From: Botryllus schlosseri
Lineage: Eukaryota
NCBI GenBank assembly: GCA_051294905.1
Contig: CM119371.1
Coordinates: 4,838,001-4,902,000, forward strand
Direction of reading: 5' to 3'
DNA length: 64,000 nucleotides
Within the stretch, counting starts at the first letter, position 1, and every line of letters starts with the position of its first letter. A program made the position numbers and the translations under genes. Of the stretch, positions 15,130 to 56,152 are shown piece after piece. A model generated the notes under the pieces. The model was not told where the DNA came from and searched no databases. It worked only from the letters and a program-made list of their open reading frames with translations.

Positions 15130-15580
15130 ATCTGGATGCATATCAATATGTTTGAGGTCTGCTTTGCGAGTAAATGATTTTCTACAGAAGTCGCATTCAC
15201 GATTTGTGGTGCCAACATGCATATCCATTTGGCGCATGAGATCTCACTTACCAGTAAATGTCACATTTCAAAGTTTCGACACCAGCATGTATGTCCACAT
15301 GATAGTTGAAGCGACTAATCAAGGTGAATGCTTTTCCACATATATCACATTCACGATTTTCGATGTAAGCATGCAAATCCATGTGATGCTTGAGGCTATC
15401 CGTCAAAGGAAATGCTTTCTAACAGAATCACATTTTTGATTTCAGCATGCATATTCAACTTTCTCAATGAATGCTTTTCCACGACATACATCACATTCAT
15501 GATTTTTTATTCCAACATGCTTATCCATATGAAGATTGAGGTAACCTTTCTTGCGGAATGCTTTCCCACATAAATCACAT
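15130..15580 (-). pseudogene. Degenerate continuation of the zinc-finger array
   Basis: [33 protein letters not shown].., ECDICGKAFTLISRFNYHVD.. with indels and stops. Confidence 0.8.
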
Positions 15581-16621
15581 TCATGATTTTTTTATTCCGG
15601 CATGCATATACATATGACGCCTGAGGCCTAAGTTCTGAATGAATGCCTTACCACATACATCACATTCATGATTTTTTATTCCAGCGTGCATATCCATATG
15701 ACGTTTCAGGTCGCACTTCAGCAAAAATGTTTTCCCACATACATCACATTCTTGATTTTTGATTCCAGCATGCGTATCCATATGACGCTTGAGGCTAAAT
15801 TTCTCTATGAATGCTTTACCACATACAACACATCCATGATTTTTTATTCCAGCATGCATATCCATATGACGCTTGAGGTGATTGTTTTCGGTAAATGCTT
15901 TCCCACATACATCACAGTCATGATTTTTGATTCCATCATGCATATTCATATGACGCTTGAGGTGACTCTTCTTGGCAAATGCTTTCCCACATATGGCACA
16001 TGCATGATTTTTGGTTCCAGCATGCATATCCTTATGACACTTGAGGTCTCCCTTCCAGGTAAATGCTTTCCCACATATGGCACATGCATGATTCCTGATG
16101 CCAGCATGCATATCCACATGGCGCTTGAGGTTACCTTTATGAATGAAAGCTTTCCCACATACGTCACATTCATGATTCTTGATTCCATCATGCGTATCCA
16201 TATGAAGCTTGAGGCTAACTTTCCGAATGAATGCTTTCCCACATAAATCACATTCACGATTTTTTATTCCAGAATGCATATCCATATGAAGCTTGAGGTA
16301 ACCATTCCGAATGAATGCTTTCCCACATACATCACATTCATGATTTTTGATTCCAGCGTGCAGACCCATATGACGTTTGAGGCCGTGCTTCTGCAAAAAT
16401 TCTTTCCCACATACATAACATTCATGATTTTTGATTCCAGCATGGCTATCCTTATGACGCTTGAGGTCTCCCTTCCAGGTAAATGCTTTCCCACATATGG
16501 CACATGCATGATTTTTGATTCCAGCATGCATATTCATATGAAGCTCAAGGTGACTTTTCTGAATGAATGCTTTCCCACACACTTCACATACAAGATTTTT
16601 CATTCCAGCGTGCTTATCCAT
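15581..16621 (-). CDS. Tandem C2H2 zinc-finger array, 12 intact fingers; possibly a pseudogenised exon
   Basis: 12 x CxxCGK(A)Fx5LxxHxxxH with linker (A/D/S)GIKNH(E/A) on an 84-bp period. Degenerate fingers continue upstream (to ~16720, in-frame TGA) and downstream after a 1-nt frameshift in a T-run near 15590. Confidence 0.85.
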
Positions 16622-16729
16622 ATGGTGCTTGAGATTACTCTTTCAACTGAATGCTTTCCCACGCATATAATTTTTATTGCTAGCATCAGTAGCATAGATA
16701 TTCTTATGAAGCTTGAGAAAGTTTTAGTA

Positions 16730-18335: not shown

Positions 18336-21300
18336 CCCTAGGGTGTACCAGAATTTTCAAAGGGTGTACCACTCGGATGGGGTGTACAGGGGTGTACCAG
18401 ATCCGAATTACAATAAGCCGATGGCTAGCTATCACAAATGCAGGTATATGCGTCAGTACAGGGCAGTTTCTTTTTTACATGTCAAAATTTGTCAAAATTT
18501 TGTCAAAATTGTAGCGTTAGGTCAAAATTTGTCAAAATTGTTCATAAAGTCAACATTTTTTTGACGTCTTTATTTCGTTTGTATCGTAAATTTTGCACAG
18601 AAGATCCAAATCATCGCGGCTCATTTGGTAACTCGGTCAAAGATCCGTGATCACGTGCAGAGTTGGATATTACAACATTTTAATTCAATTACAAGTACAA
18701 TTACTTCCTTGCATGTTTTATTAAAATTACAATTACAATTACTCAATGCTGAAATATCAAATTACAATTGCAATTACAATTACTTTTAAACAGGTCATTG
18801 ATTCAATAAAGATCGAGGTGTTCTTTGACTACCGTAGCGACGTATAATTAGCAACAATCTCAAGCTATTCATGTTTAATTCCTGATATGTAGAATACCCT
18901 TTAACTAGAAAAAAATCGTATTCGTACGTATTCGAACTATTCCTAATCATGAGTACTGATAACTACAAGCACCGAAAAATGTTTCAAGCGAATGTTAAGA
19001 ACAAAACGTTTGAGCGACTAACAGCGAATAGGCTACAGGACAGTCAATGAAATGTAATCAAAGGATTAGGCTACTCAGAGCTGAGTGAGGATAATGAAAT
19101 GTAATTGGTAAGGCGTCAGCGATAAGGATGATTCCGATAAGGTGCGTAAAATTAAAATAACTGCAAAAGGAGAGAACCTCCTGATAACTAAGAATTACAA
19201 TAATTTGGTTCACATTTACATTTCCACTTGGTCGGAAATTGTTTAATTGCATTTGATGAACATTAGGGTGCGAAAAGTTTCTGGCTCCAGTAATTTTGGC
19301 CAAGATTAGGATAACATCTCTGCAAATGCGTGATCAAGTTTGATGAAGCCTAGGTTAAAACTTGAATTTTTTTTCTTATTGTTGCAACAAGCCTCGGTAC
19401 TGGTCAGAGATTTAAAAAAATCGACAATGGTGTAGGAAATGGTTCAGCACAGGTTTCAGAAGAGTTTATTTGCGGTTCATCCATTTTTGAAATATTAAGA
19501 TTTAGGTTAGCCACTGGTTCTCTAACTTTTTTAGACACGCCCCCTTTGTGATAGTGAATATTTCGTGCCCCCCCTGATCGTCATAGCACACAATGAAATC
19601 AGAAAGTTAGCAACACTTACATATAGTTTGAGGGTATGGGTGCATTGCATTCGTTGCCAAATCGATATATGCACCTTCAAACACTTCCACCAGAGAGCCG
19701 AACTCTCTCTGTTTCAAAGCGTGAGCGCACAAGTATAAAATTACGGTCACTTTCTCGTTACAGAGGACATTATCACTTTGAGCTCTCAGTGACATGAGGG
19801 GAAGTCTGGCGTTCGGGGTCATTTCTGAGCGAGCCAATCAGTCCTTCTCCTTTCCTTCCATGGCTGGAAATCAGCACCAATATAGTTACAGAAGTCAGCA
19901 TTGTCAAGTCGATGTTTTTCGCTAGTCCCCTGCCCATGTTTGCCCTGCAAGCATTTCCACTACAAATATGTCCACTCTTATGAAATGCAACCATATTGAG
20001 CTATGTAATGTAGCCCATGTGAAGTCGGTGGATTCGCCCAATGCTAGGCTCAAGTATTCGAAGCGGCTACACGTTTCGGAACATGCGATAAAAGAACGAC
20101 TGACATTGCTGTTACTCTTCTAGTCAAGGTTGATTCGAAATTTGCCTGGTGCTGTTTTCCTTTCGGAAGTATTCTCACAGTTTGTTAGAGTTTAATTGAA
20201 ATGCACCTTCTCAAGCAGATTTCTTGGGTTTAGCGATATTCCAAGCAGTTTTGAACTATGCGACTGTAACGTCGTCGGCAATATTAACGATCTCGAAATA
20301 TGGATTGCTGGGCTTGACATCTAGCTAGCAAAGTCTTTTCTAAGAATCAGGCGATATGTATGACTGCAAAAGAAACTGCCAAGGTAATTTTGAGCTTCTA
20401 CGCTTCATAACGACAACTGCTCTTCGACAAATATTACACATCGGCTTTCAAATTATATCGGAGAAAGCAAATTCATTGTTCAACGCAGAGTTACAGAACC
20501 AGTTTTTGACGTTTAATTTCCCGTTCCTTGTTCTTGTTTTTGTTTAAACCATTCGACGTGAGTGAAATACTCTTGAAAGCTGTACTACGCAGCCGGATTC
20601 CCTTGAACCACAGTCCAGCCGAATACCGAGTCAAAACAATAACAATCTAAACCCGAGCATATAAGTAGTAGGATGGGATGCGTTTGTTACCGCCCCTCAG
20701 GCTATTTAGAATGTAAACACTCTCATAATATAATTAACGTTGGACTGTGCCCGGTCCATGCTTCCGAGAGATAAATAACATTCATTATACGTTAGATGAT
20801 ACTTTTCCTTGATATTCTATTATGTGTATTTAGGACTAATGCGACAACGGTAGACTATCGCCGTGTGTATTTATGAGCATCTCTCGCCGCTACACTCTCG
20901 AAACTTTCCTCCGACAATTTTACGACTTATGATTACCGCGTCAAAACTTACATTGGCACTTTACTTAGTCTCCTTGAAATAGCATTGTATAGTGTACGAG
21001 TTCATTTTATTTCGAAAAAAGAGCATATCAATGATATCGTTGATCGTTATTGCGTCGATTCATTAGCTGAAATCCTCCAGATCGGTTGATGTTTCGAGGT
21101 ACACCGCTTTGCTGCCGTCCGACACTGCGATCCGAGTTCTTGCGTTCGATCTGACCGTTTTGTTTGATGTAGCGATCACTGGCTTGTAGTATATACGATA
21201 CGAGCGGAAGGTCGGGATTATGAACAACTACGCTAGGCGAATAGATGACGAATTCATCAGCTCGCAGTATAACCGCTACCTGTATAATGTTTGCATGTCG

Positions 21301-24129
21301 AGTATAAGGGTATTTAACTCGGCACTAAAATGCCAACGGAATAGCCGCAGGGAGTCGGTTCTCGTTGCTATAATTAAACGAACACCTTCGCCGCAGGTAC
21401 GCGATCACCGACGTTATAATGATAGGGACAAATTAGCCGCATGAAAGCGAGTCTAATGAATATAACGACAGACAACAAGTTAGTTGAAAAGTAAAACTAA
21501 TCGTGACCGATGCAAGACGGCGTGAAACAGCGCTTTCGCTCGATTCTTGTAGTGACCACAATTCATACGATTCAGTCCTTTTCATGTCACTAGAATAAGG
21601 GTGATTAAACCAACAGTGAAACGCCGCTTCACAATTGCAAGTTAGTGTAATGCAAATTTTACCCCTTCAAGGGTTATAAAAGTATGGACGGCAAAAGGTA
21701 TAATTTTGGATCGACATGGTGCCTTAGCTATCTATCAATAGGTATGTAATATTTGTTGAAATAGTTGCTATTGATCATAGACCAAGCTTGCTTTCAGAGC
21801 TGGAAACTAAACGCATATGAAAATTTACCTAGGTGTTCCCCACACGCATCAAATGTAGGCCTACTCAAGTGTTTATGAGGTGGCGAATAGTTCGACGGTT
21901 GTTGGCATGCAAGGACGTCACATAGAATTGTGGAGTTTTCTGTAAACTATAATCCAGTGATCTATTTTCAATCACTATATTTTTCATTAATCTAAACTAA
22001 GTACTGTTAGTAGGCAAACCCTAGGAAAGTATATCCTCTGATAAAAGCAGGAATAATTTGTTATCCGTGAAATAAATAGATGGTGCGACTCTAATGGACA
22101 TAAAGAAATGAACATTTTGTAAAGTAGATATTTTTCGGTATGCTAAATTCGGCTACGCGGTGCTAGACTTCTTGGCCGCATGAAATAGGATGTTTTAGCT
22201 TCAACCTCAACGCATTAGCACACCGAATTTAAATATAGGCGATAAATAATATACAGTAGCTCCAATTTTAATGAAAAAATAAAAATAAAAAAGCGTGAAA
22301 AATTGCATTTATCCTGGAACGCACCAAGAAAAACCGTATGAATTTGTAAAGTAGTTAGAAAACTACACTATTCCGCTACACTAAAGACTTAAACAATCCG
22401 GATTTTGTATGGTGTATACTAATTTTACATTGCGGAGTATTCAGTAAAGTTCAATCCAGTGAATTCGCGTAGGCTATGCATACAAATGAGGAAAGTTACA
22501 TCAGCGCGTGTTAACTAGTTGTATTATGTAGCTTGCAATTCATGCAAGTTTCGAAACTTCCACACTGAGTCTTTTAAAATAGATAGAAACGAAAAAAACT
22601 AATCGAAAAAATTTACGAAGTTTGGATGCGGCATATTTAGGTTTTCTAAAAATTATTCATACCCATGACTCGAAATATTGTTAACTAACTTATCATGTTC
22701 TGAAGTCTCATACATGCACCGACTCTGTGCATTCAATGTAGGGGTAGCTGACTTGGAGACAGAAAAACACACATATTTGACCGTAACATGGTCTTAGTAT
22801 GAACCGACATGCATTCGACTTGTGGAAAAATGTGTCGCAGCGTGTAGTGTACAAATTTCGATGTTGCGCAAATACCACAGACATAAGATAAGCGTGTAGT
22901 GTACAAATTTCGATGTTGCGCAAATACCACGATTTTACATCGAATTATTCGAATCGACTACGTACATTGTATAGGTGTGAGGTGAAATAAAACGGATTTA
23001 CGCAAAAGTTCGACACTAAAACGCATACGGTGTCTTATAAAGTAATAATGTAAGCTGCGATGGATGCTGCTATATAATGCTAGTAGCGAATATAGTAGAA
23101 AGTCCCCGTCCGGATGAATGTAAGCAGGTGCGCTTAGTAACGTAGTAAATCGCATAACAGAATTTACATAAATTGCTACTTCTACCTTAATTTAATGGAT
23201 TTATCTGAGATCATTGCTTTACTTAATCTCTCCAAAATGTGCATTATACAAGTACGTCACCATCGAAACCATCTACCTATAACTAGCTGGCAGTATAATT
23301 GTAGCAAATACTCGAGTACTAATTTTAAAGTAACTTAGATATCTAAATGAGCTCTGAGTCGTTGTTATCTCGCATCTTGTACTTGTATTCGCACTTTACC
23401 TTTACACGTCGTTTTTGTATAATGGATACTAATTTTATTAAAAATACACAAAAAGCGCGAAAAATACATTTTATCCCGGAACGGAGCAAGAAAATGCGTA
23501 TGAATTTTGTAAAGTAGATATTCTATTCTATTATGTGTATTTAGGGCTAATGCGACATCACTATGTTAGCGACAGGCCTGATTTGAACACACTAACTTTG
23601 CAAATTAAACTTATCACCCACCACGAACACTCAATGAAGAGCACCCTGGAGCACCCTCATAAATGCTCCACAATTCGTGACGTATAATATACTGAGCATA
23701 TAATAAGCTGACAAAACTGATACTTGAGTACTCCGAAATGCACAAGTACTTTACCTTTACACGGCGTTTTTTGTAAAATGAATACTAATGGTACGCGAAT
23801 GATCATAGACTAAGCTTGCTTTCAGAGTTGGAAACTAAATGCATACGAAAATTTAACTATGTTTTCCCCTCACGCATCAAATGTAGGCATACTCAAGTGT
23901 TTATGAGGCGGCGAACAGTTCGAAGGTTGTTGGTATGCAAGGACGTCACATAGAATTGTGGAGTTTTCTGTAAACTATAATCCAGTGATCTATTTTCAAT
24001 CACTATACTTTTATTAATCGAAACTAAGTACTGTTAGTAGGCAAACCCTAGAAAAGTATCCTCTGATAAAAGCAGGAGTAATTCGTTATCTGTGAAATAT
24101 ATAGATGGCGCGCAATATGAGCGGTGTTA

Positions 24130-25935
24130 CGAATATAACAGAATTACCATGCTAATATGTGACTCATCACCTTGAAACTAGGTACGTAGTTGTAGGACAT
24201 TGTGATTATGTAGAATACCAAATTTCCTCGTACATTTCATGATGGAACTTTAAAACTAACGCGACTCTACAACGACTCTTTGCGTACATCTGTTTTGCGG
24301 GAGCGTATATAGCACGTACCCATACATACCCAACTTTAATAACGGAATTACCATGCTTAACATTGAATCCAAACTCTAAACTTGATACGAACACACTAAT
24401 TTCGCAAATTAAACTTATCACCCACCACGAACACTCAATGAAGAGCACCCTGGAGCACCCTCGTAAATGCTCCACAATTCGTGACGTATAATATACTGAG
24501 CATATAATAAGCTGACAAAACTGATACTTGAGTACTCCGAAATGTACAAGTACTTTACCTTTACACGACGGTTTTTGTAAAATGAATACTAATGGTACGC
24601 GAATGATCATAGACTAAGCTTGCTTTCAGAGTTGGAAACTAAATGCATACGAAAATTTAACTATGTTTTCCCCTCACGCATCAAATTAGTTGTATCGAGT
24701 TATCGAATGATTTTTTTCTTTACATCAAAATAACTAGAGTGTGTAACTACATTAAAAACGTATCTAAATGAGCTCCAGGTCATTGTGATTATACAGCATA
24801 CTAAATTTCATCACACATTTCATGATGGAACAACTTTAAAACTAACGCAGCTCTATAGCAAGTTTTGCCTAAATCTGTTTTCGGTAGCATGTACATATCC
24901 ATAGTCAGCTTTAATAACAGAATTACCATGCTAATATGTGACTCCTCACCTTGAAACTTGGTACGTAGTTGTAGGACATTGTGATTATGCAGCATACCAA
25001 ATTTCTTCACGCATTTCATAATGGAACAACTTTAAAACTAACGCGGCTCTACATCGACTTTTTTCGAACATCTGTTTTGCGGGAGCGTATAGCACGTACC
25101 TATACATAGTCAACTTTAATAACGGAATTACCATGCTTAACATTGAATCCCAACTCTAAACTTTATTCGTAGTTGTAGGACATTGTGGCAATGCACCATG
25201 CTAAATTTCATCGCACATCTAATGATGGATCACCTTTAAAACTAACGCAGTCGAATACCGACTTTTAAGCATATCTGTTTTGCGTGAACATAGCATATAC
25301 CTATGCATAGTCAATTTTAATAGCAGAATTACCGTGTTAAACATTGAATTCCCACCTTGAAAGTTGGTACGCGATTATAGGACACTATAACAATGCACCA
25401 TACCAAATCCCATCACACATTTCATGATGGAACAACTTTAAAACTAACGCGGCTCTACATCGACTTTTTGCGTATATCTGTTTTGCGGGGGGCGTATAGC
25501 ACGTACTCATACATAGCTAACTTTAATAACGGAATTACCATGCTTAACATTGAATCCCAACTCTAAACTTGATACGTAGTTGTAGGACATTATGGCAATG
25601 AACCATGCTAGACTTCATCACACATCTAATGATGGAACACCTTTGAAACTATCGCAGTCGAATACCGACTTTTACACGTATCTGTTTTTCGTGAACATAG
25701 CATATACCCATACATACTCAATTTTAATAACAGAATTAGCATGCTAAACCTTAAATTCTCACCTTGAACGTTGATACCCAGTTGTAGGACATAATAACAA
25801 TGCACCATACCAAATTTCGTCAGGCATTTCATGATGTAACACTTTCAAAACCAACGCAGTTCTATACAGGCTTTTGGCTAAATCTGTTTTTCCGTAGCGT
25901 AGCACGTACCTATACATAGTCAACTTTAATATCAA
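24130..25935. repeat. ~203-bp tandem repeat with ~407-bp dimeric higher order (left arm)
   Basis: 'atgatggaac..tttaaaactaacgc' recurs at ~24240, 24822, 25018, 25222, 25424, 25629, 25830; subtype motifs recur at ~407-bp spacing. Confidence 0.85.
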
Positions 25936-27955
25936 TACATGTTTATCGTAAGTCCTACACAGTCATGATATCCGGCCGAGTTTGACTTTTAGAAAACATT
26001 ATACCGACATCGCGACATCTTACAAAATTGAAACCGCGGTGACTGCTTGAGAGACCTACCAGTGATATCGCGGTAATCTAGTTACTTCCACAAAATAGTA
26101 TGTATTCAACTTACTTTCCACAAATCTAACGCGCAAAACAATTTACTTTGCTAACGAAAAGTGCTGAGTCATCATATCATTATCCACGCAACAATACACC
26201 TAAAACATACTATCGTACAAAATGGTCGCTAACCTCTTTGTGCACCAGCTGTAAATCTCACAAGCAACAAGTTTCAAGATTCCAGTTATTGCGCCAAGTC
26301 GTTATGTTGACGAAAGCGTATATTGTAATATCATGATCGATTTGCATTCGTTGGTCACAAACTGTCACTACTCTAAATAATTATTTTTCACTCAAACACA
26401 ACAGCATACTTGTCGCCATTCGTTTTCATCAAGCACGAGTTCAATAAACTTACTTACTACGACATGAATTGGTATTTTTATGTTGTGTAAATAGGTAATA
26501 ATTAATTTTAGTAACACTATACCAACATCATCGAGTTGTGCGAATAGATTTACATGTGGTGTTATGGTTTTAATCGAAGTACACTGCACGATCTAATGTA
26601 GAGTCATCTCTATTGTATAGCAACTCGGTAATCGAAATGCATGCATTAACATTTAAACAGCGATCGTGTTTCGTCACGCGAAAAATATAATGCGATACTC
26701 TGCACAGGGCATGCAAATCCTTTTCACACTCGTAATAGTATACCAACGGCTACCGGCGACAACGTTTAACAATACCAACGACACTAAACATACGATACGT
26801 ACCCAATCTGCAAATTCTTTCGATTTATTCTGTCCGTTTCAATTTAAGATAAGGAAGCCCATTTCACTCAATGTATCGATGCCTACGGTACTCTACAAAT
26901 TTTTCTGATTAATTCTCCCTATGCTTATTTATCACAAGAAAGATGATTTGACACCTAAAGTACGAAATACTTTTTCGCTTGAACTAAGCCGCAGCGCCTG
27001 GAGTGGAATTTTACGGGGTATGTGGACTCATTTCGTAGGGCTCTATACCATAGGAGCATACTTTACGCTCCAATTCGATTCCCACACATTCCATATAATT
27101 ACTAACAGAACCATTGAGTACCAGCCTTGACATTTTCCGTAGTACTAGATGGCATGTATACAATTTCACGACATCCGACATTACGACGAAGACTATCAAA
27201 ATATCGAAAGAAGCCCTCTATTCTTTTCTGAAATAATCAAGGTTTTATCAGGACTTCCCTTCATATAAACTCCAGCAGAATCACTAATAACCTCTCAAGT
27301 GTACTCAATTTACTCTAATTTGATACTCGTGTACCAAATCCCTATTTTCCGCAAGTATGATAGAGGCTATCGCTCGATACTCAACGATTCGTAATTTTGC
27401 TGGAATACAAGTACAATTAGTTTAAAGTAGTTTGAGGTTACGTTTGTATCACCTTGACAAGTGCTATTATCAAAAAATGCTTTTGCTAAACTCTTACACT
27501 TTCACTAAACTTCTACACTGAATCTTGTAAAGTAGATAGAAAAGAAAAACTATTAACATAAGGTAAGTGAGAAGCACGCAAATTTCGATTGCATACAAAT
27601 GTCACAAACTGCGCTAACTTCCAGAGTTGTTAAGTATAGAAGTACTCGTACGTCTTGAGTATACCCAAGTAGGTTTTTTGCCTACATGTACCAAATACTC
27701 TCAAGTCCTTATGATATTGGAGTACATCAACTTCATGATAGCTACAGTATTAAACAGAAATAGACCTAGAGTACTAACGTTTTTGTGCAGTGAGAGTTCG
27801 CAAATTATCGAAGTATTTTTGTTATTTTTATTGCGATAAGTCATTCTGCAGCGCAAAAATGCGTCGTAGGATATAGATGAAACTAGCACCTCTCATCAAG
27901 ACCGCTGATAACAGTACATTTCAACATAAAAAGCATAAAAAACATTCCCGCGCGC

Positions 27956-27998
27956 GTCTTAGTATTAGGTGGTAGGGTAGGAAGTGTTAGGTTTAGGA
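27956..27998 (+). other. 43-bp asymmetric G-rich spacer at the palindrome centre
   Basis: GTCTTAGTATTAGGTGGTAGGGTAGGAAGTGTTAGGTTTAGGA: one C, six G-runs, three TTAGG; clamped by CCCGCGCGC/GCGCGCGGG. Confidence 0.9.
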
Positions 27999-30018
27999 GC
28001 GCGCGGGAATGTTTTTTATGCTTTTTATGTTGAAATGTACTGTTATCAGCGGTCTTGATGAGAGGTGCTAGTTTCATCTATATCCTACGACGCATTTTTG
28101 CGCTGCAGAATGACTTATCGCAATAAAAATAACAAAAATACTTCGATAATTTGCGAACTCTCACTGCACAAAAACGTTAGTACTCTAGGTCTATTTCTGT
28201 TTAATACTGTAGCTATCATGAAGTTGATGTACTCCAATATCATAAGGACTTGAGAGTATTTGGTACATGTAGGCAAAAAACCTACTTGGGTATACTCAAG
28301 ACGTACGAGTACTTCTATACTTAACAACTCTGGAAGTTAGCGCAGTTTGTGACATTTGTATGCAATCGAAATTTGCGTGCTTCTCACTTACCTTATGTTA
28401 ATAGTTTTTCTTTTCTATCTACTTTACAAGATTCAGTGTAGAAGTTTAGTGAAAGTGTAAGAGTTTAGCAAAAGCATTTTTTGATAATAGCACTTGTCAA
28501 GGTGATACAAACGTAACCTCAAACTACTTTAAACTAATTGTACTTGTATTCCAGCAAAATTACGAATCGTTGAGTATCGAGCGATAGCCTCTATCATACT
28601 TGCGGAAAATAGGGATTTGGTACACGAGTATCAAATTAGAGTAAATTGAGTACACTTGAGAGGTTATTAGTGATTCTGCTGGAGTTTATATGAAGGGAAG
28701 TCCTGATAAAACCTTGATTATTTCAGAAAAGAATAGAGGGCTTCTTTCGATATTTTGATAGTCTTCGTCGTAATGTCGGATGTCGTGAAATTGTATACAT
28801 GCCATCTAGTACTACGGAAAATGTCAAGGCTGGTACTCAATGGTTCTGTTAGTAATTATATGGAATGTGTGGGAATCGAATTGGAGCGTAAAGTATGCTC
28901 CTATGGTATAGAGCCCTACGAAATGAGTCCACATACCCCGTAAAATTCCACTCCAGGCGCTGCGGCTTAGTTCAAGCGAAAAAGTATTTCGTACTTTAGG
29001 TGTCAAATCATCTTTCTTGTGATAAATAAGCATAGGGAGAATTAATCAGAAAAATTTGTAGAGTACCGTAGGCATCGATACATTGAGTGAAATGGGCTTC
29101 CTTATCTTAAATTGAAACGGACAGAATAAATCGAAAGAATTTGCAGATTGGGTACGTATCGTATGTTTAGTGTCGTTGGTATTGTTAAACGTTGTCGCCG
29201 GTAGCCGTTGGTATACTATTACGAGTGTGAAAAGGATTTGCATGCCCTGTGCAGAGTATCGCATTATATTTTTCGCGTGACGAAACACGATCGCTGTTTA
29301 AATGTTAATGCATGCATTTCGATTACCGAGTTGCTATACAATAGAGATGACTCTACATTAGATCGTGCAGTGTACTTCGATTAAAACCATAACACCACAT
29401 GTAAATCTATTCGCACAACTCGATGATGTTGGTATAGTGTTACTAAAATTAATTATTACCTATTTACACAACATAAAAATACCAATTCATGTCGTAGTAA
29501 GTAAGTTTATTGAACTCGTGCTTGATGAAAACGAATGGCGACAAGTATGCTGTTGTGTTTGAGTGAAAAATAATTATTTAGAGTAGTGACAGTTTGTGAC
29601 CAACGAATGCAAATCGATCATGATATTACAATATACGCTTTCGTCAACATAACGACTTGGCGCAATAACTGGAATCTTGAAACTTGTTGCTTGTGAGATT
29701 TACAGCTGGTGCACAAAGAGGTTAGCGACCATTTTGTACGATAGTATGTTTTAGGTGTATTGTTGCGTGGATAATGATATGATGACTCAGCACTTTTCGT
29801 TAGCAAAGTAAATTGTTTTGCGCGTTAGATTTGTGGAAAGTAAGTTGAATACATACTATTTTGTGGAAGTAACTAGATTACCGCGATATCACTGGTAGGT
29901 CTCTCAAGCAGTCACCGCGGTTTCAATTTTGTAAGATGTCGCGATGTCGGTATAATGTTTTCTAAAAGTCAAACTCGGCCGGATATCATGACTGTGTAGG
30001 ACTTACGATAAACATGTA

Positions 30019-31824
30019 TTGATATTAAAGTTGACTATGTATAGGTACGTGCTACGCTACGGAAAAACAGATTTAGCCAAAAGCCTGTATAGAACTGCGT
30101 TGGTTTTGAAAGTGTTACATCATGAAATGCCTGACGAAATTTGGTATGGTGCATTGTTATTATGTCCTACAACTGGGTATCAACGTTCAAGGTGAGAATT
30201 TAAGGTTTAGCATGCTAATTCTGTTATTAAAATTGAGTATGTATGGGTATATGCTATGTTCACGAAAAACAGATACGTGTAAAAGTCGGTATTCGACTGC
30301 GATAGTTTCAAAGGTGTTCCATCATTAGATGTGTGATGAAGTCTAGCATGGTTCATTGCCATAATGTCCTACAACTACGTATCAAGTTTAGAGTTGGGAT
30401 TCAATGTTAAGCATGGTAATTCCGTTATTAAAGTTAGCTATGTATGAGTACGTGCTATACGCCCCCCGCAAAACAGATATACGCAAAAAGTCGATGTAGA
30501 GCCGCGTTAGTTTTAAAGTTGTTCCATCATGAAATGTGTGATGGGATTTGGTATGGTGCATTGTTATAGTGTCCTATAATCGCGTACCAACTTTCAAGGT
30601 GGGAATTCAATGTTTAACACGGTAATTCTGCTATTAAAATTGACTATGCATAGGTATATGCTATGTTCACGCAAAACAGATATGCTTAAAAGTCGGTATT
30701 CGACTGCGTTAGTTTTAAAGGTGATCCATCATTAGATGTGCGATGAAATTTAGCATGGTGCATTGCCACAATGTCCTACAACTACGAATAAAGTTTAGAG
30801 TTGGGATTCAATGTTAAGCATGGTAATTCCGTTATTAAAGTTGACTATGTATAGGTACGTGCTATACGCTCCCGCAAAACAGATGTTCGAAAAAAGTCGA
30901 TGTAGAGCCGCGTTAGTTTTAAAGTTGTTCCATTATGAAATGCGTGAAGAAATTTGGTATGCTGCATAATCACAATGTCCTACAACTACGTACCAAGTTT
31001 CAAGGTGAGGAGTCACATATTAGCATGGTAATTCTGTTATTAAAGCTGACTATGGATATGTACATGCTACCGAAAACAGATTTAGGCAAAAGTTGCTATA
31101 GAGCTGCGTTAGTTTTAAAGTTGTTCCATCATGAAATGTGTGATGAAATTTAGTATGCTGTATAATCACAATGACCTGGAGCTCATTTAGATACGTTTTT
31201 AATGTAGTTACACACTCTAGTTATTTTGATGTAAAGAAAAAAATCATTCGATAACTCGATACAACTAATTTGATGCGTGAGGGGAAAACATAGTTAAATT
31301 TTCGTATGCATTTAGTTTCCAACTCTGAAAGCAAGCTTAGTCTATGATCATTCGCGTACCATTAGTATTCATTTTACAAAAACCGTCGTGTAAAGGTAAA
31401 GTACTTGTACATTTCGGAGTACTCAAGTATCAGTTTTGTCAGCTTATTATATGCTCAGTATATTATACGTCACGAATTGTGGAGCATTTACGAGGGTGCT
31501 CCAGGGTGCTCTTCATTGAGTGTTCGTGGTGGGTGATAAGTTTAATTTGCGAAATTAGTGTGTTCGTATCAAGTTTAGAGTTTGGATTCAATGTTAAGCA
31601 TGGTAATTCCGTTATTAAAGTTGGGTATGTATGGGTACGTGCTATATACGCTCCCGCAAAACAGATGTACGCAAAGAGTCGTTGTAGAGTCGCGTTAGTT
31701 TTAAAGTTCCATCATGAAATGTACGAGGAAATTTGGTATTCTACATAATCACAATGTCCTACAACTACGTACCTAGTTTCAAGGTGATGAGTCACATATT
31801 AGCATGGTAATTCTGTTATATTCG
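30019..31824. repeat. Mirror copy of the ~203/407-bp array (right arm)
   Basis: Reverse complement of 24130-25935. Confidence 0.85.
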
Positions 31825-34800
31825 TAACACCGCTCATATTGCGCGCCATCTATATATTTCACAGATAACGAATTACTCCTGCTTTTATCAGAGGATACTT
31901 TTCTAGGGTTTGCCTACTAACAGTACTTAGTTTCGATTAATAAAAGTATATTGATTGAAAATAGATCACTGGATTATAGTTTACAGAAAACTCCACAATT
32001 CTATGTGACGTCCTTGCATACCAACAACCTTCGAACTGTTCGCCGCCTCATAAACACTTGAGTATGCCTACATTTGATGCGTGAGGGGAAAACATAGTTA
32101 AATTTTCGTATGCATTTAGTTTCCAACTCTGAAAGCAAGCTTAGTCTATGATCATTCGCGTACCATTAGTATTCATTTTACAAAAAACGCCGTGTAAAGG
32201 TAAAGTACTTGTGCATTTCGGAGTACTCAAGTATCAGTTTTGTCAGCTTATTATATGCTCAGTATATTATACGTCACGAATTGTGGAGCATTTATGAGGG
32301 TGCTCCAGGGTGCTCTTCATTGAGTGTTCGTGGTGGGTGATAAGTTTAATTTGCAAAGTTAGTGTGTTCAAATCAGGCCTGTCGCTAACATAGTGATGTC
32401 GCATTAGCCCTAAATACACATAATAGAATAGAATATCTACTTTACAAAATTCATACGCATTTTCTTGCTCCGTTCCGGGATAAAATGTATTTTTCGCGCT
32501 TTTTGTGTATTTTTAATAAAATTAGTATCCATTATACAAAAACGACGTGTAAAGGTAAAGTGCGAATACAAGTACAAGATGCGAGATAACAACGACTCAG
32601 AGCTCATTTAGATATCTAAGTTACTTTAAAATTAGTACTCGAGTATTTGCTACAATTATACTGCCAGCTAGTTATAGGTAGATGGTTTCGATGGTGACGT
32701 ACTTGTATAATGCACATTTTGGAGAGATTAAGTAAAGCAATGATCTCAGATAAATCCATTAAATTAAGGTAGAAGTAGCAATTTATGTAAATTCTGTTAT
32801 GCGATTTACTACGTTACTAAGCGCACCTGCTTACATTCATCCGGACGGGGACTTTCTACTATATTCGCTACTAGCATTATATAGCAGCATCCATCGCAGC
32901 TTACATTATTACTTTATAAGACACCGTATGCGTTTTAGTGTCGAACTTTTGCGTAAATCCGTTTTATTTCACCTCGCACCTATACAATGTACGTAGTCGA
33001 TTCGAATAATTCGATGTAAAATCGTGGTATTTGCGCAACATCGAAATTTGTACACTACACGCTTATCTTATGTCTGTGGTATTTGCGCAACATCGAAATT
33101 TGTACACTACACGCTGCGACACATTTTTCCACAAGTCGAATGCATGTCGGTTCATACTAAGACCATGTTACGGTCAAATATGTGTGTTTTTCTGTCTCCA
33201 AGTCAGCTACCCCTACATTGAATGCACAGAGTCGGTGCATGTATGAGACTTCAGAACATGATAAGTTAGTTAACAATATTTCGAGTCATGGGTATGAATA
33301 ATTTTTAGAAAACCTAAATATGCCGCATCCAAACTTCGTAAATTTTTTCGATTAGTTTTTTTCGTTTCTATCTATTTTAAAAGACTCAGTGTGGAAGTTT
33401 CGAAACTTGCATGAATTGCAAGCTACATAATACAACTAGTTAACACGCGCTGATGTAACTTTCCACATTTGTATGCATAGCCTACGCGAATTCACTGGAT
33501 TGAACTTTACTGAATACTCCGCAATGTAAAATTAGTATACACCATACAAAATCCGGATTGTTTAAGTCTTTAGTGTAGCGGAATAGTGTAGTTTTCTAAC
33601 TACTTTACAAATTCATACGGTTTTTCTTGGTGCGTTCCAGGATAAATGCAATTTTTCACGCTTTTTTATTTTTATTTTTTCATTAAAATTGGAGCTACTG
33701 TATATTATTTATCGCCTATATTTAAATTCGGTGTGCTAATGCGTTGAGGTTGAAGCTAAAACATCCTATTTCATGCGGCCAAGAAGTCTAGCACCGCGTA
33801 GCCGAATTTAGCATACCGAAAAATATCTACTTTACAAAATGTTCATTTCTTTATGTCCATTAGAGTCGCACCATCTATTTATTTCACGGATAACAAATTA
33901 TTCCTGCTTTTATCAGAGGATATACTTTCCTAGGGTTTGCCTACTAACAGTACTTAGTTTAGATTAATGAAAAATATAGTGATTGAAAATAGATCACTGG
34001 ATTATAGTTTACAGAAAACTCCACAATTCTATGTGACGTCCTTGCATGCCAACAACCGTCGAACTATTCGCCACCTCATAAACACTTGAGTAGGCCTACA
34101 TTTGATGCGTGTGGGGAACACCTAGGTAAATTTTCATATGCGTTTAGTTTCCAGCTCTGAAAGCAAGCTTGGTCTATGATCAATAGCAACTATTTCAACA
34201 AATATTACATACCTATTGATAGATAGCTAAGGCACCATGTCGATCCAAAATTATACCTTTTGCCGTCCATACTTTTATAACCCTTGAAGGGGTAAAATTT
34301 GCATTACACTAACTTGCAATTGTGAAGCGGCGTTTCACTGTTGGTTTAATCACCCTTATTCTAGTGACATGAAAAGGACTGAATCGTATGAATTGTGGTC
34401 ACTACAAGAATCGAGCGAAAGCGCTGTTTCACGCCGTCTTGCATCGGTCACGATTAGTTTTACTTTTCAACTAACTTGTTGTCTGTCGTTATATTCATTA
34501 GACTCGCTTTCATGCGGCTAATTTGTCCCTATCATTATAACGTCGGTGATCGCGTACCTGCGGCGAAGGTGTTCGTTTAATTATAGCAACGAGAACCGAC
34601 TCCCTGCGGCTATTCCGTTGGCATTTTAGTGCCGAGTTAAATACCCTTATACTCGACATGCAAACATTATACAGGTAGCGGTTATACTGCGAGCTGATGA
34701 ATTCGTCATCTATTCGCCTAGCGTAGTTGTTCATAATCCCGACCTTCCGCTCGTATCGTATATACTACAAGCCAGTGATCGCTACATCAAACAAAACGAT

Positions 34801-35530
34801 CAGATCGAACGCAAGAACTCGGATCGCAGTGTCGGACGGCAGCAAAGCGGTGTACCTCGAAACATCAACCGATCTGGAGGATTTCAGCTAATGAATCGAC
34901 GCAATAACGATCAACGATATCATTGATATGCTCTTTTTTCGAAATAAAATGAACTCGTACACTATACAATGCTATTTCAAGGAGACTAAGTAAAGTGCCA
35001 ATGTAAGTTTTGACGCGGTAATCATAAGTCGTAAAATTGTCGGAGGAAAGTTTCGAGAGTGTAGCGGCGAGAGATGCTCATAAATACACACGGCGATAGT
35101 CTACCGTTGTCGCATTAGTCCTAAATACACATAATAGAATATCAAGGAAAAGTATCATCTAACGTATAATGAATGTTATTTATCTCTCGGAAGCATGGAC
35201 CGGGCACAGTCCAACGTTAATTATATTATGAGAGTGTTTACATTCTAAATAGCCTGAGGGGCGGTAACAAACGCATCCCATCCTACTACTCATATATCAA
35301 GAAACCAGAACACACCAAAGAATGAGTAATCAATCGAAACAGAGACGGGGCGATAAGAGAGTTAAGTAGCTAAATTAATATGTAACAACACTGTGCTATA
35401 ATAGTAATTGCGTTAATAATGAAAGATGTCGCGGGCCGCAAAATATACGTCTGCGGGCCGCGGGTTGAGAACCCCTGATATAAACTGACTATATTCGAAT
35501 TCAACTTCAAAACAAAAGGTTTGGTTAAGG

Positions 35531-51463: not shown

Positions 51464-54400
51464 TGCAGTGGTAGCTAGTAGATACATGCCAACGCGCAAG
51501 CGTGTGTGTGTACGCTAACATGCATGACTAGTTTCATGGGACCTCGTGTTCCATTCGTACTCTGATACTTGTGAAGAATACAGCTTTGATTAACGTAAGA
51601 GTGAACTTCGTATATAGATAGAAACAGCCAGACGCGCAGGACCTTTACCGCTCGAAGTCACGACTACTGCATGGTGACAGCGCTGGCTAGCATTCTATTA
51701 TCGAGCAAGAATCCGCTGAGATCTAAGTAAAATGGCGAAATGTACAGCGCCTGGTCCGTTAACGCTCACGGCCGGAGCAAACCACTTCGAAGAATGGCGC
51801 CGATGGAGGAGGGAATTTGAATTTCACCTCAAGGGCACCGAATCTTTCGAGAAACCAGGACGCGTTAAAGGCAACATTTTACTTTCCAACATCGGCAGTA
51901 AGGCTCTTGCAATATATGACAGATTCACCTTCGCGCCTGCCGTCGCTGAAGCAGATGGCGTTGAAGCTAGAGAAGCTGAGGATGACGAGCACTATGATGT
52001 AATAATGCGGAAGTTCGACGAACACTTCCAACTTCGTAAGCGTGACGATAGAGTCAGGAATAGAGTACGCTTCATCACTCGCCTACATCGAGGGAAAAAC
52101 CAGCCACTTGTCTCTTGGGTCGAAGAAGTGACCAAAATGGCATGCGAATGCGATTATCGCGACGACGAACGGGAAAACTTAATTAGAGACAAACTCTTAG
52201 CATCGACCAACGATTCCGTCATACTTGTCAGAACGTATGCCGTGAAGCATGACGAACTCTCGTTGCAAATGGTCATTGATATAATGACGGAGAGAGAAGA
52301 CAGACTGGCGGACGCTGACCAGCAAGCGAGTTTGTTAACAGTTGGCGCAGTATCAAAACGGAATCCCAAACCTCAAGCTCATGACGCACCGAAGAAGCTT
52401 TATAAATGCAAATGGTGTGGCGAAAAGCATCAGTTTGGGAAGAAGTACTGCCCAGCAGCTAAAAGCAAGTGCCCGAAATGCAAGAAAGTTGGACACTATC
52501 CGACTCAATGCTTCACGAAATCAGTTCGTGCTGTTGAAGCTGACCCGGATTCCGTTCACTCAGTACAATCCGTACAAATCTCCCGTGAGAACAACGCAGA
52601 CGTAGTCTTCTGTGGTGCTGTAAATTCAGTTCCAGATGTTGACAACTTCAGATTCATGAAAGACATGCGAGTCGGACGTGAAACGTTCTCATGGATGCTA
52701 GACACTGGAGCAGAAGTCTCAGTGATGCCGGAACACATGTACAAAGAAGAGTATGGCACCTTACAGCCTACTAGAACAATACTTCGTAGCGCTGATGGAC
52801 GTGACATGACAACTCTAGGGGTGGTGGAAATGACAATTTCCGCACAAGAGAAAACCTTTTCTGAGAAAGTCTACATTGTACGCGACGCTACAAATTTACT
52901 TCTTGGATGCCCGGGGGTTTACAAACTTGGAGTTATCAATACAAGCAAGGTTCGGATCGAACATCTGAACGCAACGGCAAAAGCTGACTGTAATACAATA
53001 TCATTGCGTGACAAGGATGACGTTATGTTGGCATATCCAGATCTATTCACAGGTGTTGGTCGACTCAAAGATTACCAATACACTATCAAACTGAAGAAAG
53101 ATGCCAAACCATTTTGCCTGAATACGCCGAGAAGAGTTGCAATACCGTTAATAGGCAAATTGACTGAAGAGATTGCAAAGCTGAAAGACTTGGGAATTAT
53201 AGAACCGGTCGACGAACCGACGGATTGGTGTGCTCCCATAGTGGTTGCAGCCAAGAAAGATGGAAACATACGACTTTGTGTGGATTTATCAAAGCTCAAC
53301 GAAGCAGTTAAAAGAGAACTATATCCCATGCCCACTGTCGAAAATTCTTTGGGCCAGATATCGAAAGGATCTCTATTCGCTAAGTTGGATGCAAATTGTG
53401 GATTCCACCAAATCGAACTGACTCCAGAATGCCGTAAGTTGACAACCTTTATTACTCCCATTGGTCGTTTTATGTACAAGAGACTCCCATATGGCATTAG
53501 TTCTGCGCCAGAAATATTTCAAAAATGTATGGGAAAAGTACTAGCTGGAATCCCACATGTGACATGTCACGTCGATGACATCGTCATATCATGTCAGCCG
53601 GAAACTTACAATCAGACTCTGACAACAGTCCTTGACAAGCTGAAAGCATCAGGCGTGACCCTGAATGCTAATAAATGTGTATTTCATGCAACTAAGATTG
53701 ATTACTTGGGCCAAGTCGTTAGCCAAGATGGTATCACTAAAGACCAGAAAAAGGTCACGGCCATCACCGGTTTTCCACCTCCCCAAGATATAGCCCAACT
53801 GAGAAGATTCCTCGGCATGGCAAATCAGTTAATGAAATTCACTCCCCATTTGGCTGAAACTACTCAACCTTTGAGAGAACTGCTGTCTAAGAAAAATGCA
53901 TGGCTCTGGGGACCCAAACAGAAAGAGGCGTTTGAAAAAGTGAAAACTGATCTCACCTCTACGGTAATCCTGGCCTTGTATGACCCGAATAGAGAAACCT
54001 TAGTTTCCGCAGACGCAAGCAGCTATGGCTTAGGAGCCGTGTTAATGCAAAAGCAAGATGATGATATTTTTCGACCCGTTGCATATGCCAGTAGGTCAAT
54101 GAATGACACAGAACGACGCTATGCTCAAATCGAAAAGGAGGCATTGGCAACTACATGGGCTATTGAACGTTGGAGAGATCTGTTACTAGGTATGAAAGGG
54201 TTTCGAGTAGAAACTGACCATAAGCCTCTGGTTCCGCTCCTCTCCACAAAATCATTGGACGAGCTTCCGCTTCGGATCCAAAGATTCCGTATGCGACTAA
54301 TGAAATATGACTTCAAAATCAGTCATACTCCTGGGAAACTAATGTATTCCGCAGATGCTCTTAGTCGTAGTCCGCTGCCAGACTTCGCTGATGCTGACGA

Positions 54401-56152
54401 CCTGCGCGAACAGACTGAATATCACATCAATAGACTGTTCACAGACTTGGCTCCGACCAATGACAGACTAGATCAAATTCGAGACGAGACTCGAAAAGAC
54501 GCGACCTTGTCAACTGTTATGGGCTACATCCGCAATGGTTGGCCCAAAACGAAAAAGACATTGTATGGTCCAGTACGCCCATACTGGAACGAACGCGGTG
54601 TACTGACAGTACACGATGACGTATTACTCAAGGGAGATAGACTCGTAATTCCCCAAACTTTGAGAGAAGATGCATTGACGCACCTTCATGACGGTCACTT
54701 AGGCGTGACCAAAACGAGACAGCTTGCCTCGCAAACTTGTTGGTGGCCCGGATCCTCAACTGACATTGAGAGAATCGTGAGAAACTGCGATCGCTGCTTA
54801 GAACAACGACGTGATCGCGTAGAACCAATGATCTCGACTGACTTTCCGGAAAGACCATGGTCTCGCATAGCATCTGACTTTTTCAAATTTGGAAACAATT
54901 ACTATATGCTTGTTGTGGATTACTATTCAAGGGATATTGAAGTCTCCCGTGTTAACCACAACATCAATTCTGCACAGACTATAACAGAATTCAAGAAAGT
55001 TTTCAGCCGTAGAGGTATTTGTGATGTGCTGATGACCGACAACGCTCCGCTGTACGTTTCGAAAGAGTTCCAGCAATTCTGTAAAGCCTGGAACTTCAGC
55101 CACATTACCTCGTCGCCTCGATTTCCTCAAAGTAACGGGTTAGCTGAAAAAACGGTATCCTCCCTTCAGGGGCTGATGGCAAAGAGCGACGACTTCCTCC
55201 TCGCTCTGATGAATTACCGAAATACTCCGCTGCATAATGGATTTTCTCCAGCGCAGCTGAGCATGGGACGCCGCCTAAAAACACTTGTTCCGTGCCACCC
55301 AGATCGTTTGCTTCCTGAGACGATCGACAAATCTACTCTTCAAAGGAAGGAGAGAGAATATAGGAAGAAGATGTCCAAAGACTACAACAAACGACATCGC
55401 GTGGTCGAAAGCGACAGCTTTGAAGTTGGCGATAATGTATACATTCCCGACTGCCGAAAGCGAGCAACAGTGAAAGAAATGCATGACGCTCCAAGATCAA
55501 TCGTCGTAGAAACCGACCAAGGAAAAATGAGACGCAATAGAAGACACCTTCGAAATTATCATTCACCTGGAAACCCTGAAGACCACATGCCAGATGACAT
55601 CGATAACTCATTAGATCCGATTGAAGACACCGAAACACCTCTTCGAGTGACTCTACCGAAACCTCTTCAACAACCTCAATCTTCAACTAACGTTCCTGAT
55701 GCAAACCCGCGCAGATCTTCGAGACTTCGCAGACGACCTCAGAGACTCATTGAAGAATGCTAACTTAACTGTTTCTTAGGAGACAGGATCCATTCAAGGG
55801 GCAGAATAATCCCCGGACCTGTTGAATACATGGGGCAGTCTACCCCCACTGTATTAGTTAGGCTAAGTTCGCCCTTTCTGCATGTTGTAGGAAGTGATTT
55901 GTTTTGTTGAAATTTAATATGCTCTCCACACGCTTTGGGGGAGATGCAGTGGTAGCTAGTAGATACATGCCAACGCGCAAGCGTGTGTGTGTACGCTAAC
56001 ATGCATGACTAGTTTCATGGGACCTCGTGTTCCATTCGTACTCTGATACTTGTGAAGAATACAGCTTTGATTAACGTAAGAGTGAACTTCGTATATAGAT
56101 AGAAACAGCCAGACGCGCAGGACCTTTACCGCTCGAAGTCACGACTACTGCA
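51464..56152 (+). mobile_element. Full-length Ty3/Gypsy LTR retrotransposon (Mag-like), young
   Basis: 208-bp LTRs 51464-51671 and 55945-56152 (TGCAGT...ACTGCA, no difference seen); 5-bp TSD GTGAG; PBS TGGTGACAGCG at 51672 (tRNA-Leu-like); PPT GGGGGAGA before the 3' LTR. Confidence 0.97.
51732..55763 (+). CDS. Gag-Pol polyprotein (Gag zinc knuckles, aspartic protease, RT, RNase H, integrase), 1343 aa
   Basis: CKWCGEKH..CPKCKKVGHYPTQC knuckles; LDTGA protease; LPYGISSAPEIFQ and HVDD RT; ADASSYGLG/YAQIEKE/TDHKPL RNase H; H..H..CDRC zinc domain and D..D(TDN)..E integrase, in Gypsy order. Confidence 0.97.
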   Translation: MAKCTAPGPLTLTAGANHFEEWRRWRREFEFHLKGTESFEKPGRVKGNILLSNIGSKALAIYDRFTFAPAVAEADGVEAREAEDDEHYDVIMRKFDEHFQLRKRDDRVRNRVRFITRLHRGKNQPLVSWVEEVTKMACECDYRDDERENLIRDKLLASTNDSVILVRTYAVKHDELSLQMVIDIMTEREDRLADADQQASLLTVGAVSKRNPKPQAHDAPKKLYKCKWCGEKHQFGKKYCPAAKSKCPKCKKVGHYPTQCFTKSVRAVEADPDSVHSVQSVQISRENNADVVFCGAVNSVPDVDNFRFMKDMRVGRETFSWMLDTGAEVSVMPEHMYKEEYGTLQPTRTILRSADGRDMTTLGVVEMTISAQEKTFSEKVYIVRDATNLLLGCPGVYKLGVINTSKVRIEHLNATAKADCNTISLRDKDDVMLAYPDLFTGVGRLKDYQYTIKLKKDAKPFCLNTPRRVAIPLIGKLTEEIAKLKDLGIIEPVDEPTDWCAPIVVAAKKDGNIRLCVDLSKLNEAVKRELYPMPTVENSLGQISKGSLFAKLDANCGFHQIELTPECRKLTTFITPIGRFMYKRLPYGISSAPEIFQKCMGKVLAGIPHVTCHVDDIVISCQPETYNQTLTTVLDKLKASGVTLNANKCVFHATKIDYLGQVVSQDGITKDQKKVTAITGFPPPQDIAQLRRFLGMANQLMKFTPHLAETTQPLRELLSKKNAWLWGPKQKEAFEKVKTDLTSTVILALYDPNRETLVSADASSYGLGAVLMQKQDDDIFRPVAYASRSMNDTERRYAQIEKEALATTWAIERWRDLLLGMKGFRVETDHKPLVPLLSTKSLDELPLRIQRFRMRLMKYDFKISHTPGKLMYSADALSRSPLPDFADADDLREQTEYHINRLFTDLAPTNDRLDQIRDETRKDATLSTVMGYIRNGWPKTKKTLYGPVRPYWNERGVLTVHDDVLLKGDRLVIPQTLREDALTHLHDGHLGVTKTRQLASQTCWWPGSSTDIERIVRNCDRCLEQRRDRVEPMISTDFPERPWSRIASDFFKFGNNYYMLVVDYYSRDIEVSRVNHNINSAQTITEFKKVFSRRGICDVLMTDNAPLYVSKEFQQFCKAWNFSHITSSPRFPQSNGLAEKTVSSLQGLMAKSDDFLLALMNYRNTPLHNGFSPAQLSMGRRLKTLVPCHPDRLLPETIDKSTLQRKEREYRKKMSKDYNKRHRVVESDSFEVGDNVYIPDCRKRATVKEMHDAPRSIVVETDQGKMRRNRRHLRNYHSPGNPEDHMPDDIDNSLDPIEDTETPLRVTLPKPLQQPQSSTNVPDANPRRSSRLRRRPQRLIEEC

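Follow-up and report, generated by a model that had tools for sequence, protein, structure and literature searches.

A conserved stem-loop at the centre of a putatively Maverick-related palindromic transposon in Botryllus schlosseri

A near-perfect palindrome of 14,627 bp lies within the 64,000-nt window of Botryllus schlosseri contig CM119371.1 that was analysed here (the window; coordinates are positions within it unless another contig is named). At its exact centre stand a 25-bp stem and a 43-nt loop, which we interpret as the fold-back point of a non-autonomous, near-perfectly palindromic DNA transposon with Maverick-type ends and a copy-back origin, a reading to which we assign a probability of roughly 60%. 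That the palindrome is a real insertion of a palindromic transposon we consider very probable. The same centre had been noticed in a preliminary description, which suggested that it may be a dedicated hairpin end or resolution site, of the sort known from linear viruses, or a G-quadruplex. Our evidence comes from the anatomy of the element, from its other copies in the genome, from the pattern of variation between its two arms, and from independent sequencing runs.

Results

The palindromic element in the window

Base-by-base comparison delimits the palindrome to 20664-35290, with arms of 7,292 nt that differ at five positions (Table 1). The arm-specific single-nucleotide polymorphism nearest to the palindrome centre is 3.1 kb away from it. 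The element begins with 5'-AGTAGTAGG and finishes with CCTACTACT-3', that is, 5'-AGTAGT...ACTACT-3', and the 6-bp target-site duplication CATATA adjoins it on both sides; the terminal motif to which the preliminary description had likened the loop is indeed carried by the outer ends. The longest stop-to-stop frame in an arm spans 135 amino acids (aa), so the element has no coding capacity. Each arm contains a tandem repeat with a period of 202/407 nt, placed in mirror image in the other arm. Compared to the main family of copies described below, about 1.24 kb per arm, located between position 27927 and the stem, is absent on both sides in the window copy.

Table 1. Coordinates of the palindromic element and of its centre in the window.
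Feature	Position	Strand	Remarks
Target-site duplication CATATA, left	20658-20663	.	
Left arm, 7,292 nt, starting 5'-AGTAGTAGG	20664-27955	+	5 mismatches to right arm
Outer, subfamily-specific terminal region	20664-20909	+	Recurs as inverted pairs (spacing 12-22 kb) in many further elements; the C11 and C6 sister copies have another version
Tandem repeat, left arm	24797-25931	.	Mirrored at 30023-31157
Deletion junction (about 1.24 kb less than main family)	27928-27930	.	Mirrored at 28024-28026
Stem, left half, AAGCATAAAAAACATTCCCGCGCGC	27931-27955	+	GC clamp 27947-27955
Loop (spacer), 43 nt, non-palindromic, G/T/A-rich, one C	27956-27998	+	
Two-tetrad motif GGTGGTAGGGTAGG	27968-27981	+	
Stem, right half	27999-28023	+	GC clamp 27999-28007
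Right arm, reverse complement of left arm, ending ...CCTACTACT-3'	27999-35290	-	
Target-site duplication CATATA, right	35291-35296	.	

Anatomy of the centre

The spacer GTCTTAGTATTAGGTGGTAGGGTAGGAAGTGTTAGGTTTAGGA, which is flanked by CCCGCGCGC and GCGCGCGGG, is made up of 17 G, 15 T, 10 A and a single C. It contains TTAGG three times, TAGGG once and six G-runs; these motifs and the single C agree with what had been stated for 27947-28007. The GC clamp on either side was likewise confirmed, but the stem to which it belongs is longer than claimed, the complementarity extending over 25 bp. Folded as single-stranded DNA, the 93-nt core gives a simple hairpin with a predicted energy of -29.5 kcal/mol (z = -11 relative to 200 shuffles). 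An extension of this stem through G·T wobbles had also been suggested. On paper, CTTAGTATT and AGTGTTAGG can form five Watson-Crick and four G·T pairs, but the two segments do not abut the stem, no extended stem is predicted, and the 43-nt loop alone folds at 0 kcal/mol on either strand.

Quadruplex prediction was no more favourable to a structured loop. No motif with four G-runs of at least three was found in it, and its G4Hunter score is 0.74, with a best 25-nt window of 1.08, the usual quadruplex threshold being about 1.2. The sole motif of quadruplex type is the two-tetrad GGTGGTAGGGTAGG, which is broken in two of 31 core loci (L025 and L033). The quadruplex potential of the loop is marginal, and the two-tetrad motif is weak.

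The description of the loop as telomere-like holds in part. In a post-hoc comparison with composition-matched shuffles, its local score against a TTAGG-type repeat is 26, versus 10.8 ± 3.3 for shuffled sequences (equalled in 1 of 2000), and against TTAGGG it is 29 (equalled in 2 of 500). The host telomere repeat is TTAGGG, with 11,190 pattern matches genome-wide, including an array that begins at C1:41837632 and runs to the end of this contig of 41,841,566 bases; (TTAGG)7 has 16 matches in the host genome, all of them internal. The loop itself holds no complete TTAGGG unit, and its likeness to the host repeat is degenerate. Its sequence probably matters only as a non-self-complementary, structure-free stretch.

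A dispersed family with shared ends and a shared centre

The genome (495 Mb in 219 contigs) contains two sister copies of this palindrome (14.7 kb), on C11 and C6, each with a target duplication of its own. Searches with the outer 246 nt of the window copy and the outer 296 nt of the sister copies returned 1064 and 1076 first-look candidates, respectively, among which were many inverted pairs 10-24 kb apart. The end pairs listed are from the 40 candidates scored for each terminal query; among the longest, of 20-24 kb, are C9:14279958-14301979, C14:13018054-13038622, C5:26372144-26396097 and C8:26809533-26833518. In six of the seven end pairs read, the 6-bp duplication is perfect (CATATA in the window, TACCTA on C11, TGAATG on C6, GACGGC on C5, CAGGGG on C9 and CCTACT on C3), and the pair on C7 agrees at five of six positions. 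AGTAGT/ACTACT is unbroken at 13 of the 14 ends, the exception reading ACTCCT. The elements are spread across many chromosomes and, as a rough estimate from some 1070 terminal candidates of about 7 kb each, the family may account for roughly one percent of the genome.

The 93-nt core was present with 97-100% identity at all 40 places scored, out of 321 candidates, and on C13 and C16 it lies midway between paired ends. The preliminary description was thus correct in setting the centre apart from a one-off template-switch junction: other copies share it. Thirty-one distinct core loci were inspected with 1.5-kb flanks. Fourteen are palindromic out to the edge of the flank and nine over 192-1370 nt, several of the latter ending merely at a small indel or a run of Ns; the remaining eight are palindromic over at most 104 nt, owing to one-sided deletions beside the core. 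Point variants in the loop distinguish loci, and some of them are common to several copies. Common descent can explain a conserved centre, and conservation alone is therefore no proof of a dedicated loop function. A comparison of loop and flank conservation in 27 copies was dropped as a test, since likeness to the core had been the criterion for choosing these copies, so that ascertainment accounts for how little their stem and loop diverge.

Main-family loci also show what the window copy has lost. The missing segment, seen for example at locus L046 (C12:20868500-20878499) as 1.3 kb beside the core, consists of two diverged units of about 690 nt. In these loci a degenerate twin (AAACATAAAAAATACTC) of the outermost 17 stem nucleotides (AAGCATAAAAAACATTC) occurs one such unit outward; what is unique to the centre is therefore limited to the GC clamp and the loop. 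A further locus, L043 (C9:993000-1002999, centre at C9:1001207-1001302), is a half copy in which the loop is accompanied by a single arm and a single half of the stem, with unrelated sequence starting precisely at the first base of the loop. The outer end of its arm is truncated by another repeat, which also borders the palindrome at L015.

Mirrored variation between the arms

In an alignment of the arms of three copies (6,950 columns), 37 columns are variable. Twenty-nine of these differences are mirrored in both arms of the copy concerned and eight are confined to a single arm; mirroring also extends to a 2-nt insertion and to the deletion of about 1.24 kb. The two arms of a copy differ at 1-5 positions, compared to 16-26 between copies. 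Mirrored variants combined with so few differences within a copy indicate that the arms have repeatedly been made alike, one being copied from the other.

The sequence in independent data

Palindromes can be manufactured during sequencing and assembly, when hairpin adapters or fold-back chimeric reads are assembled as if they were genomic. The loop does look synthetic, with its three-letter composition and GC clamp, and at two loci a second core stands across a 100-N gap, 5.4-5.6 kb from the first (L035 and L036 in C7:16862000-16881999; L037 and L038 in C5:22916000-22935999). Each gap is bordered by sequences that overlap one another directly, the overlap measuring 5,540 nt with one mismatch on C7 and 5,258 nt without mismatch on C5, and these two loci are therefore un-merged contig overlaps, an assembly error caused by the palindrome. 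Palindromic elements of this kind break assemblies.

We consider an artefact highly improbable, and for the family as a whole it is refuted. The outer ends of the palindromes are flanked by target duplications, and substitutions in the loop and arms differ between copies, some of them being shared. Moreover, the core stretch is present in 20 sequencing runs from nine studies (2015-2025) under two organism labels. Contigs from four of four independent runs, which belong to four other studies (2018-2024) and include one of the second organism, cover stem, loop and stem with the palindromic flanks of the main family, and they contain loop variants of their own (an additional T after 27977, and AG>TT at 27989-90). 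In all four runs there are loose ends at 27927 and 28027 that continue into the main-family segment. The junction of the window type (27927-27931) was bridged by no listed contig of these runs, which is uninformative, as contigs drop rare variants. No RNA run was among the runs listed; six runs that we guessed to be RNA contain 0.20-0.40 of the words.

Viral hairpin telomeres

The preliminary description had compared the centre to the concatemer junctions of hairpin-ended poxviruses, African swine fever virus (ASFV) and parvoviruses. On that view it would have served a linear virus as telomere or resolution site, and its loop would function through G·T pairing or as a quadruplex. In favour of this are a centre conserved across every scored copy, a strand-asymmetric loop with a single C, and the presence of a two-tetrad motif, but the element as a whole is an integrated, non-coding transposon: its outer ends are open and carry AGTAGT and 6-bp duplications, it is dispersed over many chromosomes, and arms without an open frame of more than 135 aa leave no flanking viral genes. 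The loop is unstructured in DNA folding, falls short in G4Hunter, has no G3 motif, and carries mutated G-runs in some copies. The exact loop was also absent from prokaryotic genomes and viral contigs, and a degenerate pattern of the core from metagenome contigs, albeit in collections that may not cover such organisms. This viral reading is largely refuted, and we regard it as very improbable. Of the proposed hairpin end or resolution site, what stands is a plausible turn-around of a virus-like linear DNA element; a telomere of the poxvirus or parvovirus type is unsupported.

Ends of the Maverick type

A study of vertebrate Mavericks (PMC8097293) describes the end motif 5'-(AGT)2//(ACT)2-3' together with perfect 6-bp duplications, and states that the repeated end motif serves jumping-back in protein-primed replication. 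By analogy with this motif, the ends of the present family are likely to be of the Maverick type. It is the ends alone that would make the family a member of this class, and it could be one only as a non-autonomous derivative. Our full-text literature search found no description of palindromic or foldback non-autonomous Mavericks; one paper remarks on the apparent absence of non-autonomous Mavericks in a lizard (PMC3014272).

Two other classes of transposon were considered. Ginger2, which has a 6-bp AT-rich target and TGTNR ends, was ruled out by the AGTAGT ends and by targets that are not AT-rich here. A hAT partner was rejected as well, with 150 matches in the genome and none within the end pairs listed.

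Other features in the window

Outside the palindrome, a stop-free frame of 1,347 aa on the forward strand (51720-55760), in a region of higher G+C content (0.45-0.46), probably encodes a putative retrotransposon polyprotein. A tandem array of 14 units of 84 nt (15461-16662) lies within a 353-aa minus-strand frame that reads as C2H2 zinc-finger repeats.

Discussion

How the palindrome may have formed

The element has one kind of end only, 5'-AGTAGT..., on both of its sides, and inserts with a 6-bp target duplication. We propose copy-back (snap-back) synthesis both as the origin of the palindrome and as the process that maintains its symmetry. After displacement or new synthesis from one end, a strand would fold at the 25-bp inverted repeat, the unstructured 43-nt loop would serve as turn-around, and a polymerase would copy the arm back to the end. 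The resulting molecule would have identical ends on both sides and could be inserted by an integrase. In its single-stranded form the element would be one hairpin of 7.3 kb, which would restore one duplex end. We put this copy-back cycle forward tentatively, at somewhat less than even odds, and we infer that it would depend on mobilisation in trans by Maverick proteins and on replication that alternates between hairpin and dimer.

More speculatively, the hundreds of copies of 10-24 kb may be one-ended defective Mavericks that alternate between a hairpin of 7-8 kb and a palindromic dimer, the dimer being the form that integrates; the displaced strand would snap back at the 93-nt core and protein-primed synthesis would pass round the 43-nt loop. 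If so, the core would be an obligatory cis-acting turn-around, and in this family the chromosomes would preserve a record of the defective-interfering genomes that a polintovirus produced. If it were transcribed in addition, it could be a source of kilobase-long hairpin RNA against polintovirus.

To our knowledge, the replication of Mavericks (Polintons) has never been shown directly, and protein-primed synthesis is deduced from their gene content and terminal motifs. A large, young and gene-less palindrome family that retains the Maverick end signature together with a fixed turn-around would amount to a natural experiment on this process, and a copy-back view predicts hairpin and dimer intermediates.

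Points that weigh against copy-back from a Maverick

Several observations tell against this interpretation. The end motif was published for vertebrates and is applied to the present family by analogy. An autonomous Maverick with these ends was not found when profile matches were compared with the end pairs listed. The polymerase profile PF03175 gave nothing at E <= 0.001 (best match 24.8 bits, cut-off 25.8), and a search of the genome with PF00770 gave no match. The ATPase, polymerase-like and hAT matches all lie outside the end pairs listed. The arms are homologous in all copies, so that one ancestral accident followed by descent also explains the conserved centre. Neither an extrachromosomal hairpin nor a dimer has been observed. 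Lastly, the mirrored differences are explained equally well by gene conversion from arm to arm in the chromosome.

The profile searches did produce candidates. Weak, sub-threshold matches to protein-primed polymerases sit in several open frames of 774-1455 aa (e.g., C5:11748519 and C13:14452325). An intact, multi-copy open frame of 274 aa matches the packaging ATPase Pox_A32; it accounts for 11 of 13 matches (23.9 bits) and has at least 11 copies, for example at C1:35767436, C2:2220410 and C4:1886648. Both sets of frames possibly mark polintovirus-like elements. The integrase profile rve had 150 matches, one of which, at C15:9448315, is near a terminal match, 18.6 kb inside it, with the partner end unseen.

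Gene conversion between arms is part of another explanation, according to which the family consists of ordinary foldback transposons of the kind of Drosophila FB or Galileo, moved by a cut-and-paste transposase that recognises their two identical ends, with arms converted in the chromosome and the loop a passive leftover whose only effect is to make the palindrome imperfect. The long inverted arms, the tandem repeats inside them and the short spacer in the middle all suit such an origin, as do the non-coding nature of the element, the differences confined to one arm (8 of 37 variable columns), the asymmetric deletion derivatives beside the core (8 of 31 loci), and the lack of any polymerase gene linked to these elements. 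What this explanation does not provide is the combination of a 6-bp duplication with (AGT)2 ends, which is the one described for Mavericks; nor was a hAT match found inside the end pairs listed, hAT being the sole cut-and-paste family searched. We consider an ordinary foldback transposon unlikely, albeit far less so than an artefact or a viral telomere.

Comparison with known systems

Mavericks/Polintons, in which the repeated end motif can also be (AG)3 (PMC8097293), share with the present family the 6-bp duplication, the (AGT)2...(ACT)2 ends, the presence of inverted terminal repeats and, with 10-24 kb in this family, the size. The family differs from them in having no genes for polymerase, integrase, packaging ATPase, protease or capsid, in possessing a dedicated central stem-loop, and in an inverted repeat that makes up the whole element (an arm of 7,292 nt), compared to a few hundred bases in theirs.

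Foldback elements such as Drosophila FB, Galileo and the nematode Tm1 resemble the family in their long arms with tandem repeats, short spacer, mostly non-coding sequence and arm lengths varied by deletion. The target duplications of FB and Galileo are 9 and 7 bp, and in elements of this type the duplication length (7-9 bp) and the ends are those of a P or Mutator-like partner, in contrast to 6 bp and AGTAGT here. A further difference is that the arms of the present family are mostly unique sequence and 99.9% alike.

Palindromes can also form where a free DNA end carries a short inverted repeat, as in the ribosomal DNA (rDNA) of Tetrahymena and in the palindromic amplification of yeast and mammals. 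There, too, the exact centre of a giant palindrome is a short inverted repeat, its halves separated by tens of non-palindromic bases. Those palindromes are single-locus and driven by chromosome breakage, without target duplications or mobility.

Comparable with the proposed copy-back cycle are derivatives of protein-primed genomes. Snap-back genomes were reportedly found in incomplete particles of adenovirus by Daniell in 1976, and Kitada and Gunge are said to have described hairpin and palindromic derivatives of the yeast killer plasmid pGKL1 in 1988. In these molecules, a second, inverted copy of one end lies beyond a turn-around, so that both origins are identical, as copy-back predicts. 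They are extrachromosomal defective genomes, whereas the present family is integrated hundreds of times.

The linear plasmid pELF1 (PMC6863802) has one hairpin end and one protein-capped end. It differs from the present family in being bacterial, gene-bearing and not integrated, and its loop is of 4 nt. It nevertheless unites a closed turn-around and an end of the protein-primed type on one replicon, and long reads show its hairpin end as an inverted repeat (PMC6863802).

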